64,000 nt of DNA from Aggregatimonas sp. (lineage in GTDB: Bacteria > Bacteroidota > Bacteroidia > Flavobacteriales > Flavobacteriaceae): positions 969,288-1,033,287 of the forward strand of contig OZ250162.1 of NCBI GenBank assembly GCA_965238025.1. Reading direction: 5' to 3'. Below are positions 4,215 through 7,687 of the stretch, piece by piece. Under the pieces are notes generated by a model that did not search any database, had not been told where the DNA came from, and was given only the letters and a program-made list of their open reading frames with translations. A program made the translations under genes and the position numbers. Position 1 is the first letter of the stretch, and the number at the start of each line of letters is the position of its first letter.

Positions 4215-6113
4215 ATGAGTGACGCCATTAAGCACGAATGCGGAATTTCAATCATCCGATTGTTGAAACCTTTAGAATACTACAAAGAAAAATATGGCAC
4301 CGCATTTTATGGGGTAAACAAAATGTACCTCATGATGGAAAAACAGCACAATCGCGGTCAGGATGGTGCGGGTTTCGCCAGCATTAAATTAGACATGAAA
4401 CCGGGGGAACGTTATATGAGCCGAGTACGTTCTACCGCCCAACAACCTATTCAAGACATTTTTGCCCAAATTAATGACAGAATCAATGGGTCGCTTGAAG
4501 AACATCCGGAATACCAAAATGACGTCGGTCTTCAAAAAAAGAACATTCCATATATTGGTGAACTTCTTTTAGGTCATGTGCGTTATGGCACATTCGGCAA
4601 GAACAGCATAGAAAGTGTCCACCCTTTTATTCGCCAGAACAATTGGATGCATAGGAACCTTATCGTAGCAGGCAACTTCAACATGACCAATTCTTACGAG
4701 CTGTTTGACAACCTCGTTCAGCTTGGGCAGCACCCAAAGGAAATGACCGATACGGTTACCGTTATGGAAAAAATCGGTCATTTCTTAGACGATGCCGTTG
4801 CAAAGCTCTACAAGAAAATCAAAAAAGAAGGATTCAATAAACAGGAGGCTTCACCTCTAATCGAAGAGCGCTTAAGCATTTCTAAAATATTGAAAAGGGC
4901 AGCCAAAAACTTTGATGGAGGCTATGCAATGGCTGGTCTGCTTGGACATGGAGATGCTTTTGTCTTACGTGACCCTGCAGGCATACGACCAGCTTATTAC
5001 TACAAAGATGACGAGGTAGTTGTGGTAGCATCCGAACGTCCGGCTATACAAACCGTATTCAATGTACCCTATGAAAGTGTAAAAGAGTTAGACCCCGGTC
5101 ACGCACTTATCATAAAAAAAAGTGGGAGCTCTGCCATTAAGCAGGTACTTGAACCTACCGAACGCAAGGCCTGTTCTTTTGAACGAATTTATTTTTCCAG
5201 GGGAAGCGATAAAGAAATTTACCAGGAGCGTAAGGAACTGGGTAAGTTGATATTCCCAAAAATATTGACTGCCATAGATCATAACCTCAAAAAAACGGTA
5301 TTCTCCTATATTCCAAATACCGCAGAGACTTCTTTTTTTGGTATGGTCAAAGAAGCTCAGAATTATCTTAACAAGAAGAAAGAAGAGCAGATTTTGGCTT
5401 TAGGCCCTAAGATAACTGGCGATCAATTACATAAAATTCTTGAAGTTCGCCCGCGAATCGAGAAAGTGGCTATAAAGGACGCCAAGCTTCGGACATTCAT
5501 TACCCAAGACAGTAGTAGGGATGATTTGGTAGCCCATGTTTATGATATTTCCTATGGATCTGTACAAAAAGGGGATAACCTTGTTATAATAGATGATAGT
5601 ATTGTTCGCGGTACAACCTTAAGGAAAAGTATCCTTCGTATTCTGGATCGTTTATCCCCAAGGAAAATTGTAGTGGTTTCTTCGGCCCCTCAAATTCGGT
5701 ATCCTGATTGTTATGGAATCGATATGGCCAAATTAGAGGATTTCATTGCCTTTAAAGCTGCCTTGGCACTCCATAAAGAAGGCAAGACTATGGCAATCGT
5801 AGATCAGATATATGAAAAATGCCTGAAACAAGTAAATGCAGAAGACAAGAACGTAGTCAACTACGTAAAGGAGTTTTACGCTCCTTTTACAGCGGATGAA
5901 ATCTCCAAAAAAATTGGGGAGTTATTGACTTCTTCAGGGATTAAAGCAGAAGTACAGATAATCTATCAAACAATTGAAAATCTACACAAGGCTTGCCCCA
6001 AGAATTTAGGAGACTGGTATTTTACGGGAAACTACCCTACAGCTGGTGGTAATCGCGTTGTAAATAGAGCGTTTATCAATTTTTACGAAGGAAAAAACGA
6101 AAGGGCGTATTAA
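4215..6113 (+). CDS. purF: amidophosphoribosyltransferase (Bacteroidota long form)
   Basis: HECG N-terminal nucleophile Cys, HNRGQDGAG, HVRYGT, IIDDSIVRGTT PRPP-binding motif. Confidence 0.93.
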   Translation: MSDAIKHECGISIIRLLKPLEYYKEKYGTAFYGVNKMYLMMEKQHNRGQDGAGFASIKLDMKPGERYMSRVRSTAQQPIQDIFAQINDRINGSLEEHPEYQNDVGLQKKNIPYIGELLLGHVRYGTFGKNSIESVHPFIRQNNWMHRNLIVAGNFNMTNSYELFDNLVQLGQHPKEMTDTVTVMEKIGHFLDDAVAKLYKKIKKEGFNKQEASPLIEERLSISKILKRAAKNFDGGYAMAGLLGHGDAFVLRDPAGIRPAYYYKDDEVVVVASERPAIQTVFNVPYESVKELDPGHALIIKKSGSSAIKQVLEPTERKACSFERIYFSRGSDKEIYQERKELGKLIFPKILTAIDHNLKKTVFSYIPNTAETSFFGMVKEAQNYLNKKKEEQILALGPKITGDQLHKILEVRPRIEKVAIKDAKLRTFITQDSSRDDLVAHVYDISYGSVQKGDNLVIIDDSIVRGTTLRKSILRILDRLSPRKIVVVSSAPQIRYPDCYGIDMAKLEDFIAFKAALALHKEGKTMAIVDQIYEKCLKQVNAEDKNVVNYVKEFYAPFTADEISKKIGELLTSSGIKAEVQIIYQTIENLHKACPKNLGDWYFTGNYPTAGGNRVVNRAFINFYEGKNERAY

Positions 6114-6217
6114 CAATTTTATCGATGAAATACACGAAAAACTGCATTTCATCGATAAATTACGTCGTTCATCGGCTTTTTAGTCACTTAGACGAACCAC
6201 CGCCTATTTTAGACCCG

Positions 6218-6288
6218 CCATAGCATAAGTAGGTTAAGTTCATGGTAAGATTTGGGGCAAAAAAGGTGGGGACTTCCCCGCCTTTTTT
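6218..6288 (+). ncRNA. candidate small RNA, sibling copy 1
   Basis: TATTTTAG -7 box at 6205-6212, 5-nt gap, conserved 39-nt core CCATAGCATAAGTAGGTTAAGTTCATGGTAAGATTTGGG, then terminator hairpin and T run. Confidence 0.6.
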
Positions 6289-6435
6289 ATGTTTTTAATA
6301 TTCCAACGATCACACTAAGTTTATCCTGATCTCCCCGAAAAACCATTTCTCTTTAGCATTTGCACTTCATCCTATTTATAGACAATTCAACAAAGAAATT
6401 TCCCCTACTTTAAAACCCGCCTTATGTTTGGAGGA

Positions 6436-6505
6436 CCATAGCATAAGTAGGTTAAGTTCATGGTAAGATTTGGGGAAAAAAGGCGGAGCAATGCTCCGCC
6501 TTTTT
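6436..6505 (+). ncRNA. candidate small RNA, sibling copy 2
   Basis: perfect TATGTTTG -7 box at 6423-6430, 5-nt gap, same core, terminator AGGCGGAGCA-A-TGCTCCGCCT plus T run. Confidence 0.65.
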
Positions 6506-6700
6506 GTTTTGGGTAATCTTTATATAGTGAAAAAGTTGAACAACCATTTATTCATATAATTAAAGCGTTTAGGTGCCCATTGAATACAATCTTTTGCCCT
6601 TCTTGAAAAAAATATTGACTTTACTGGTAGTTCAACTATGGATAAGGACGTTCGTCTAAAACCTTTCACCAATACAAGATTTCAGTCTATTTTTGGAGGA

Positions 6701-6771
6701 CCATAGCATAAGTAGGTTAAGTTCATGGTAAGATTTGGGGAAAAAAGGTGGAGCATTGCTCCGCCTTTTTT
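6701..6771 (+). ncRNA. candidate small RNA, sibling copy 3
   Basis: perfect TATTTTTG -7 box at 6688-6695, 5-nt gap, same core, terminator hairpin plus T run. Confidence 0.65.
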
Positions 6772-6895
6772 ATTGTCTGAACCCTAGCAAATCGCAAGCG
6801 GAGCCCATTTTTAAGTTGTCGTTTCCTACAATTGTGCCTTTAAAATTTCTTAAAATTTCTTTTTTATATGCTGCAATACCAGTAATTTAGCATTG

Positions 6896-6966
6896 CCATA
6901 GCATAAGTAGGTTAAGTTTATGGTAAGATTTGGGACGAAAAGGGTGGAGACTTCTCCGCCCTTTTC
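6896..6966 (+). ncRNA. candidate small RNA, sibling copy 4
   Basis: TAATTTAG box at 6883-6890, 5-nt gap, core with one C>T change, terminator AAAAGGGTGGAG-ACTT-CTCCGCCCTTTT. Confidence 0.6.
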
Positions 6967-7023: not shown

Positions 7024-7058
7024 AAAAGACCGCCCCGATAAATCGGGACGGCCTTTTT
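7024..7058 (-). terminator. bidirectional terminator downstream of sod
   Basis: AAAAGACCGCCCCGAT / ATCGGGACGGCCTTTT inverted repeat flanked by A and T runs. Confidence 0.7.
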
Positions 7059-7078
7059 ACTTTCTTGTTGAAGTTCAA

Positions 7079-7687
7079 TTATTTGTTTGCCTCATATAGC
7101 TCAGAAACCCTATCCCAGTTAATTATGTTGAAAAAGGCGCTAACATAATCGGGCCGTCGGTTTTGGTAATTAAGGTAGTAGGCGTGCTCCCAAACATCCA
7201 ATCCTAAAATAGGAAATCCTCCACAACTCACTCCTGGCATTAGGGGATTATCTTGATTAGGGGAGGAACAGACCTCAACTTTTCCTCCTTTATGCACACA
7301 TAACCATGCCCAACCTGATCCAAAACGGGTACCAGCTGCAGCGCTAAATTTTTCTTTAAATGCATCAAAAGAGCCATAAGCACTTTCAATAGCATTTGCC
7401 AGTGCGCCAGAAGGCATACCACCACCATTGGGTGACATAACACTCCAGAACAAGGAATGGTTGTAAAAACCGCCACCATTATTGCGTACAGCGCCATTAT
7501 TCATATCAAGGTTGGTCAAAATATCTTCAATAGATTTTCCCTCCAAATCGGTCCCCGCAATGGCTCCATTCAATTTTGTGGTATATCCATTATGATGTTT
7601 GCCGTGATGAATTTCCATAGTACGGGCGTCAATATGTGGTTCTAACGCATCGGTTGCGTAGGGTAGATTAGGTAGTTCAAAAGCCAT
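7079..7687 (-). CDS. sod: Fe/Mn superoxide dismutase
   Basis: [10 protein letters not shown] start (ATG at 7687); HHGKHH, FNNGGG-like [13 protein letters not shown] and DVWEHAYY motifs. Confidence 0.96.

Follow-up and report, generated by a model that had tools for sequence, protein, structure and literature searches.

Introduction

Flavobacteriaceae, among which are pathogens of fish, play a major part in breaking down organic matter in the sea and in freshwater. To our knowledge, almost nothing has been described about the RNA regulators of this family, and the phylum to which it belongs, the Bacteroidota, is without Hfq. In this work, we analyzed a 64,000-nt stretch of Aggregatimonas sp. 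DNA (contig OZ250162.1; hereafter the window, to which coordinates refer unless stated otherwise), in which four short repeated units at 6205-6966 (+) form an array flanked by purF and sod. The closest described relative of these units is Rfp13 (THC0290_N_0129) of Flavobacterium psychrophilum OSU THCO2-90, a 73-nt independent transcript encoded at 208062-208134 (-) (PMC9723704; Guerin et al. 2021, ISME Commun 1:33). According to the supplements of that study, 7237 reads place its 5' end at the base, a purine, directly before CCAT, and a promoter of the SigA class lies upstream of this end. The gene converges with sodA (207374-207979 (+)) and carries the annotation "induced under iron depletion". 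With an array signal of 2^17, Rfp13 is among the most abundant small transcripts of F. psychrophilum (PMC9723704). The main text of the paper names it once, among the structured small RNAs (sRNAs) conserved beyond the species, and we found no mention of it elsewhere in the literature searched.

We consider it very probable that the four units are Rfp13-family sRNA genes, and the array is then a tandem, amplified member of a family that has been seen as a transcript and is absent from Rfam. Below, we describe the units, their conservation, promoters and possible targets, and weigh what the array may do.

Results

Identity and layout of the array

The link to Rfp13 was made by searching the supplements of PMC9723704 with the core sequence of the units, which matched in Table S8. 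The units are 78-84% identical to Rfp13 overall and agree with it at 35-36 of 40 core positions. Their folds match the published structure of Rfp13, a 5' hairpin with a conserved loop followed by a single-stranded linker and an intrinsic terminator, and they share two further features of the family, a sigma-A (-33/-7) promoter of their own and a locus convergent with sod(A). A covariance model that includes Rfp13 scored the four units at 80.9-88.0 bits in the 64-kb window and nothing else above 19.5 bits; the matches up to that value were terminators read on the other strand. A preliminary description of this DNA had proposed sibling sRNA genes, each with a promoter and a terminator, and the homology to an independent 73-nt transcript together with the covarying terminators bears this out. 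It had also suggested a search of Rfam and a survey of covariation across the Flavobacteriaceae. Both were carried out: terminator pairs change in a compensatory manner, as detailed in the next section, and no family of Rfam 15 reached its gathering threshold (scan at E <= 10). The best Rfam matches were driven by the terminator, with 34.9 bits against 60 needed, 33.7 against 50 and, for FopS (RF04319), 17.9 against 56.

Exact matches to the pattern CCATAGCATAAGTAGGTTAAGTTYATGGTAAGATTTGGG lie at 6218, 6436, 6701 and 6896 (+), where the preliminary description had placed four 39-nt cores, and 100 shuffled sequences contained none. A repeat finder likewise returned one family of 83 nt with four members (6205-6287, 6423-6505, 6688-6770 and 6883-6965; spacings of 218, 265 and 195 nt). 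The core is the same in copies 1-3 and differs once in copy 4, where C24 is replaced by T. As had been noted, every core is preceded by a TAnnTTWG -7 box at a gap of exactly 5 nt (TATTTTAG, TATGTTTG, TATTTTTG and TAATTTAG). Downstream of each core, a G+C-rich hairpin of 11-14 bp and a T run follow; RNA folding recovered this hairpin in all four units and a simple terminator scan in two of them. Two details of the preliminary description needed correction: from a terminator to the -7 box that follows it there are 134, 182 and 111 nt (111-182 nt, rather than spacers of 125-195 bp), and the spacers ahead of copies 2 and 3 are not fully unrelated, having a conserved direct-repeat motif in common.

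By analogy with the mapped start of Rfp13, the transcripts of the window units would start at the purine before CCAU. Unit 1 (6205-6288 (+)) thus comprises the -7 box TATTTTAG at 6205-6212, a predicted start at G6217, the core at 6218-6256 and a terminator at 6259-6288; it scores 88.0 bits at 6217-6288 (covariance model R1) and folds with -25.6 kcal/mol (z -3.4). Unit 2 (6423-6505 (+); 82.8 bits; -26.3 kcal/mol, z -4.7) has its -7 box TATGTTTG at 6423-6430, predicted start at A6435, core at 6436-6474 and terminator at 6477-6505. The corresponding parts of unit 3 (6688-6771 (+); 87.5 bits; -25.4 kcal/mol, z -3.5) are TATTTTTG at 6688-6695, A6700, 6701-6739 and 6741-6771. Unit 4 (6883-6966 (+); 80.9 bits; -25.1 kcal/mol, z -3.7) is a type-B paralogue, with U in place of C24 and the linker GAUUUGGGAC; its -7 box TAATTTAG lies at 6883-6890, its predicted start at G6895, its core at 6896-6934 and its terminator at 6938-6965. 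The upstream flank of the array is a gene for a purF-like glutamine amidotransferase of 632 aa (4215-6113 (+); Pfam GATase_7 and GATase_6). The convergent downstream flank is sod, encoding an Fe/Mn superoxide dismutase (7024-7687 (-); coding sequence 7079-7687, 202 aa from ATG; Pfam Sod_Fe_N and Sod_Fe_C), for which the terminator scan found a terminator at 7024-7057 (-).

RNA structure and covariation

The predicted fold of each unit consists of a 5' hairpin, a stretch of about 12 unpaired nucleotides and the terminator, with -25 to -26 kcal/mol and z-scores of -3.4 to -4.7. The 5' hairpin is weak, consisting of eight pairs and one bulge, and carries an invariant 13-nt loop, AUAAGUAGGUUAA, in which AGUAGGUUAA is a putative pairing stretch. 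The single-stranded linker reads UA(A)GAUUUGGGG, with GAUUUGGGG invariant. The order of the 5' helix (R0-U, C-G, C-G, A-U, U-A, bulge, A-U, R-U, C-G) is nearly invariant as well.

When 150 copies were aligned to the model, 99.4% of the cells were paired, compared with 35-58% when the 3' partners were slid. Compensatory changes occur in 10 of the 11 terminator pairs, and a MAFFT alignment was concordant, so that the varying yet paired stems of the preliminary description reflect covariation in the terminator helix. In the 5' helix, C-G is replaced by U-A at locus L036 and A-U by U-A at L071, two double changes that are joined by several wobble changes and by paired insertions or deletions (indels) in Flavobacterium.

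Conservation, synteny and copy number

A tandem array of at least three, usually four or five, units with a core that is 100% invariant is present in each of the 15 genomes sampled from the same genus. The last copy is T24 in every one of these arrays, indicating that the copies are orthologous. The element was found in 8 of 10 sampled genera of Flavobacteriaceae and in none of 16 other families of Flavobacteriales sampled. At least 119 species genomes contain an exact match to the 24-mer CATAAGTAGGTTAAGTTYATGGTA, and the 80 listed among them were used for the analysis of loci. All 80 are Flavobacteriaceae or unclassified Flavobacteriales or Bacteroidota, and among them are Maribacter, Zobellia, Pricia, Flagellimonas, Winogradskyella, Aquimarina, Kordia, Gillisia, Salegentibacter, Leeuwenhoekiella and Flavobacterium. 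One copy is present at 34 of the 80 loci, two at 23, three at 10, four at 11, and five and six at one locus each. By tblastn, nearly all species loci whose flanks are present have purF upstream of the array and in the same orientation; a convergent sod follows in 59 of the 80, and most of the others end before it.

The repetition of the element, its position directly downstream of purF on the same strand and the ATG within the core (ATGGTAAGATTTGGGG) might suggest that the units are not genes at all, and are instead mobile or repetitive DNA (repetitive extragenic palindromes, REP, or miniature inverted-repeat transposable elements, MITE), cis-acting elements of the purF 3' untranslated region (UTR) or short protein-coding open reading frames. 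Membership in a genome-wide REP or MITE family, which the preliminary description had named as one finding that would speak against sRNA genes, was searched for with a pattern allowing three mismatches, short-word BLAST and an nhmmer profile, and only the four copies of the array were found in the 4,042,260-bp genome. REP and MITE elements are therefore ruled out by the restriction to four copies at a single conserved locus, syntenic across the listed genera of Flavobacteriaceae. Every unit also has its own promoter, and a start has been mapped for the homologue Rfp13. Coding is excluded because a TAAG/TAG indel and the varying length of the A run shift every frame, including the one after the core ATG, among orthologues. 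Taken together, we regard an explanation in which the units are not genes as extremely improbable.

A few divergent cases were seen among the relatives. An array member of Maribacter antarcticus (L096 6648-6718) has a degenerated linker (GGTAACATGTGTGAAAAAAGG) with hairpin and terminator intact; its score is 68.4 bits, and it has the look of a sibling in the course of decay or divergence. In one metagenome-assembled contig (JARRKS010000359.1, L068 2635-3505), one of the few loci that place the sRNA elsewhere than between purF and sod, a gene for a LytTR response regulator is convergent to the sRNA and ends about 90 nt downstream; this is a single case on a scaffold with Ns. A degenerate core fragment, TAGCGTAAGTAGGTTTAGTTTGGTAAGATTTGGGA, lies right behind a terminator-like hairpin at a second locus of a relative (genome G014, L027 1501-1534; 19.4 bits by the covariance model). 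Similar matches are present in five other genomes of the same genus, and the genome of the window has none at E <= 0.001.

Promoters and a conserved direct repeat

We aligned 171 non-redundant promoters, ungapped and anchored at the start, without a motif model. Besides the -7 box 5 nt before CCAT and a T-rich -33 region, the alignment revealed two added peaks of information 20 bp apart, at -71/-70/-65 and -50/-49/-45. The peaks correspond to a direct repeat with the consensus GCATTTCATC(G), a 9-nt, GCATTTCAT-like element, with a period of 20 bp in 42 of 51 pairs. In the window, the repeat lies upstream of copies 1-3 and not of copy 4, and its proximal copy starts exactly 54 nt ahead of the first C of the core and ends at about -45, beside the -33 box. 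Unit 1 has three motif copies at 6123-6174 (+), an inverted one (CGATGAAATAC, 6123-6133) and two direct ones (GCATTTCATCG, 6144-6154; GTCGTTCATCG, 6164-6174). Unit 2 has GCACTTCATCC (6362-6372) and ACAATTCAACA (6382-6392) with the 20-bp period, spanning 6362-6392 (+), and unit 3 has GTAGTTCAACT (6627-6637) and GACGTTCGTCT (6647-6657), spanning 6627-6657 (+). The third, inverted copy at unit 1 explains a 17-bp inverted repeat at 6118-6159 right after the purF stop, which is formed by the motif copies GATGAAAT and ATTTCATC and is conserved in other genera; it may both terminate purF transcription and provide unit 1 with a third regulator site. Unit 4 is preceded instead by the 10-nt TTAAAATTTC twice in tandem at 6840-6859 (+), and this promoter type is conserved in Maribacter, Zobellia, Pricia, Flagellimonas and Eudoraea.

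At the fixed positions, 57 of 115 type-A C24 units have both motif sites; among type-A T24 units the number is 3 of 26, and among type-B units 0 of 24. These counts are partly circular, since the counting matrix was built from these same promoters; no unit had the pair at control offsets. The Rfp13 promoter of F. psychrophilum has TTTCATCG at the equivalent position. Two sites separated by two helical turns and abutting the -33 box are typical of activator binding. The motif has the layout of LytTR-type sites, two direct repeats of 9-11 nt, 11-13 nt apart, just upstream of -35/-33, and its geometry also fits AraC-type regulators. The genome encodes 11 response regulators with related, co-clustering LytTR-like C-terminal domains, one representative of which was checked by Pfam and has a LytTR domain; none of the 11 adjoins the array. 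That a LytTR regulator drives copies 1-3 is a possibility suggested by the sequence of the promoters, and we put it forward tentatively.

A genome scan for motif pairs of at least 21 bits showed an enrichment of 20- and 21-bp spacings, with eight and five pairs, respectively, compared with 0-4 for any other spacing; three of the pairs are the sRNA promoters. Other pairs with 20- or 21-bp spacing lie outside the window, at C1:3828672-3828890, 1566916, 1271172, 14200 and 2660579, upstream of genes for a 798-aa lipoprotein, a DUF1800/DUF1501 pair, hemF and two large secreted proteins. The 5' UTR of the 798-aa lipoprotein gene also has TCCCAAAATCTTA...AACTTAACC, which is complementary to the sRNA. 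No -7 box was found at a matching distance from the non-sRNA pairs of the genome, and therefore no regulon can be claimed.

Expression of the homologue and a possible link to iron

In the limma table of PMC9723704, Rfp13 rises with a log2 fold change of 5.68 in the transition phase and 7.09 in the stationary phase, 2.38 under dipyridyl (adjusted P 0.008) and 2.2 under NaCl, and falls by -1.27 in plasma and -2.55 under amoxicillin. Since the RNA of F. psychrophilum goes up at the stationary transition, under iron chelation and with NaCl, the array in the window is probably the output of a nutrient or stress switch. More generally, growth-phase "induction" of small stable RNAs needs careful reading in this data set (PMC9723704).

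The response to dipyridyl, the annotation of Rfp13 as induced under iron depletion (PMC9723704), the family-wide position beside sod and a tandem layout reminiscent of PrrF1/PrrF2 raise the question of whether the units are iron-sparing sRNAs like RyhB or PrrF, repressed by Fur and lowering iron-containing proteins, among them the adjoining superoxide dismutase. The preliminary description had entertained such an iron-sod circuit, and its factual side, a homologue that is induced by the chelator and convergent with sodA, stands. The circuit itself fared less well. No Fur box was found in the promoters, where the best match to the 19-bp Fur consensus is 12/19 against a shuffled mean of 12.4; that consensus is the proteobacterial (E. 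coli-type) one, which may not be that of the Bacteroidota. The conserved motif at -54 and -74 has the geometry of an activator site, and growth phase induces Rfp13 far more strongly than chelation does (PMC9723704). Target prediction, which the preliminary description had also suggested, gave only average complementarity for sod: the translation start of sod pairs with the sRNA at -8.6 and -10.4 kcal/mol, within 0.6 standard deviations of genome means of -7.5 and -9.95. Nor is sodA among the best 31 CopraRNA predictions for Rfp13 (PMC9723704). An iron-sparing role is hence improbable in our judgment.

Candidate targets and mode of action

By analogy with other sRNAs of Bacteroidota, base-pairing in trans is the most likely mode of action of the units, and we give it roughly even chances. 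Pairing of the core with A-rich translation-initiation regions ending in ATG, as proposed in the preliminary description, may occur; the scans below speak neither clearly for it nor clearly against it. The complement of the linker, the 8-mer CCCAAATC, occurs 14 times in the -40 to +20 regions of translation starts, whereas 2.3 occurrences are expected from permuted words; it is the highest of 224 permutations and the sole 8-mer that stands out, with 40 positions tested. The CCCAAATC sites mostly precede lipoprotein genes, and three of them also have the loop complement AACCTAC downstream, in the right order. Candidate pairing sites in 5' UTRs are of the CCCAAAUC type. The 5' UTRs of the genes that start at genome positions 3,230,624, 3,536,950, 2,255,002, 1,378,712 and 3,828,890 are among the leading candidates. 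The top candidates with two seeds are mostly lipoproteins without Pfam domains and thus offer no theme, and no orthologues of the best candidate target were found in metagenomes. A whole-sRNA duplex scan of 3318 translation starts was discarded, being dominated by long-loop artefacts. For Rfp13, the published CopraRNA analysis, the input of which already had homologues from Zobellia galactanivorans and Cellulophaga algicola, gives remG, gcdH, adhesins, dnaA, glnS and ribD/ribE as top predictions, with a false discovery rate of 0.014-0.04 (PMC9723704).

Alternatively, the RNAs could sequester a protein or another abundant RNA instead of pairing with mRNAs, with loop and linker as the binding site. 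Titration would be served by having several highly expressed copies, and the amplified copy number, the array signal of the homologue Rfp13 noted above and the lack of a convincing excess of mRNA targets in our complementarity scans are in line with this idea. So is the invariance of approximately 40 nt in the listed genera, which extends to stem positions that are able to covary and rarely do so. On the other hand, each RNA carries a single motif, unlike the repeated motifs of CsrB or 6S-type decoys. The Qrr sRNAs have about 32 invariant nucleotides and still pair with mRNAs, which means that invariance alone does not discriminate between the two modes. Overall, sequestration seems unlikely to us, and base-pairing in trans is the mode that we carry into the model below.

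One intergenic site elsewhere in the genome deserves mention. At C1:2361010-2361035 (L154 2011-2036), CCCCAAATCTTACCATAACTTGACC is complementary to nucleotides 15-41 of the sRNA over 25 nt with an exact run of 16 nt, and about 80 nt downstream of it lies ATCTACTTAT, which is complementary to the loop. Read on the minus strand, the site is core-like, split by a hairpin insert of about 75 nt and lacks a promoter and a terminator; it has no Rfam match. It could be a target, a sponge or a decayed copy of the sRNA gene (a split relic).

Discussion

We propose that each unit would be transcribed alone from its sigma-A type -33/-7 promoter into an RNA of about 71 nt, composed of a weak 5' hairpin with an invariant loop, an invariant single-stranded linker and a strong terminator free to covary. 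The RNA would act in trans by base-pairing through the loop, the linker or both, as other Hfq-independent sRNAs of Bacteroidota do. In the Maribacter/Zobellia/Pricia group, the gene has been amplified from one to 4-6 copies, which would add dosage and separate inputs. Copies 1-3, with their two GCATTTCATC-like sites, would respond to an activator, for which a LytTR-type response regulator is the best candidate, and copy 4 is a paralogue of older origin, set apart by its altered linker and by a conserved promoter of another kind. We consider this overall explanation, comprising independently transcribed Rfp13-family sRNAs with the structure, mode of action and regulation proposed, likely. The tandem amplification in marine genera, the family-wide synteny, the two classes of paralogue and promoter, and the conserved activator-type site are new here.

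Several observations weigh against this explanation or parts of it. The isolated 5' hairpin (-6.2 kcal/mol) is no more stable than shuffled sequences (z -0.29), indicating that the constraint is mainly on sequence, and its near-invariance could equally be compatible with protein binding. A genome-wide scan for colinear complementarity to two seeds gave no clear excess over reversed or shuffled seeds, with none at low thresholds, and the published CopraRNA list for Rfp13 consists of predictions without a coherent theme (PMC9723704). LytTR sites have no general consensus (PMC4847170); the tentative assignment of such a regulator draws on the geometry of the motif and its resemblance to a known site, and LytTR specificity is not conserved across families. 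In the finest expression clustering, Rfp13 falls together with tRNAs (cluster A1769), of which tRNA-Cys and tRNA-Asn also go up in stationary phase and on agar (PMC9723704 Table S4), and part of its growth-phase rise may therefore be an artefact of small stable RNAs or of recovery; the rise of Rfp13 in the F. psychrophilum arrays is earlier and larger than that of the tRNAs. Contigs from public RNA runs of relatives contain the core, yet they contain the spacers too. They end at repeat edges, which is an assembly effect, and unitig depth sums over copies, making them unusable as evidence for start sites.

Invariance of about 40 nt across the listed genera, abundance in the one species studied, a fixed address between purF and sod, and 4-6 copies in some genera are features usual for a central regulator. 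The conserved activator-type site offers a concrete way to the signal, and the two promoter types provide a natural test of why bacteria retain sibling sRNAs. In a more far-reaching picture, which we regard as speculative and rather unlikely, the array would be the RNA output of a YpdA/YpdB-like LytTR two-component system sensing that nutrients run out as growth ends, with at least three siblings on this input and the older paralogue on a second one, forming a Qrr-like multi-copy switch that reprograms mRNAs for secreted proteins and lipoproteins throughout the Flavobacteriaceae, which have no Hfq. The E. coli LytTR regulator YpdB binds GGCATTTCAT-N11-GGCATTTCAT at the yhjX promoter, and its target is switched on at stationary-phase entry (PMC4847170). 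The motif in the window resembles this site in being a direct repeat of GCATTTCAT whose two copies are 11 nt apart and lie directly ahead of the promoter. It differs in its period, 21 bp in E. coli compared with 20 bp in the window, and the two organisms are very distant.

Among multi-copy sRNAs, Qrr1-5 of Vibrio are similar in that several near-identical genes share a long invariant stretch, vary in their terminators and are each read from a separate promoter with response-regulator sites (candidate sites here), which allows dosage effects and signal integration. The window units have no sequence relation to them and no Rfam match, and whereas the Qrr genes are dispersed, depend on sigma-54 and LuxO and require Hfq, the units are tandem and of the sigma-A type. 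PrrF1/PrrF2 of Pseudomonas and RyhB are comparable in the tandem sRNA genes, the response of the homologue to an iron chelator and the suggested link to superoxide dismutase; here the array has no Fur box, homology or predicted pairing with sod mRNA, and sod is a neighbour. GibS, MasB and FopS (RF04319) of Bacteroides are likewise Hfq-independent sRNAs, 70-150 nt long, which are read from a -33/-7 promoter and combine an accessible seed with an intrinsic terminator; FopS is also a multi-copy paralogous family. The FopS genes are dispersed beside polysaccharide-utilisation loci, in contrast to the Rfp13 family, which is specific to the Flavobacteriaceae and occupies one locus. The closest relative is Rfp13 itself, which differs from the window array in being represented by one annotated gene at the sodA locus of F. 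psychrophilum (a count for that locus only) compared with four in tandem here, and in having Rfp14 and tyrS as far-side neighbours in place of purF. The window array further has two paralogue types with different promoters, and in the marine copies the linker is longer by one A and the stem contains a C bulge. Common to both are the homologous sequence, the two-hairpin layout, a start placed alike relative to the -7 box, the TTTCATCG site upstream at -50 to -43, and the convergent position beside sodA.

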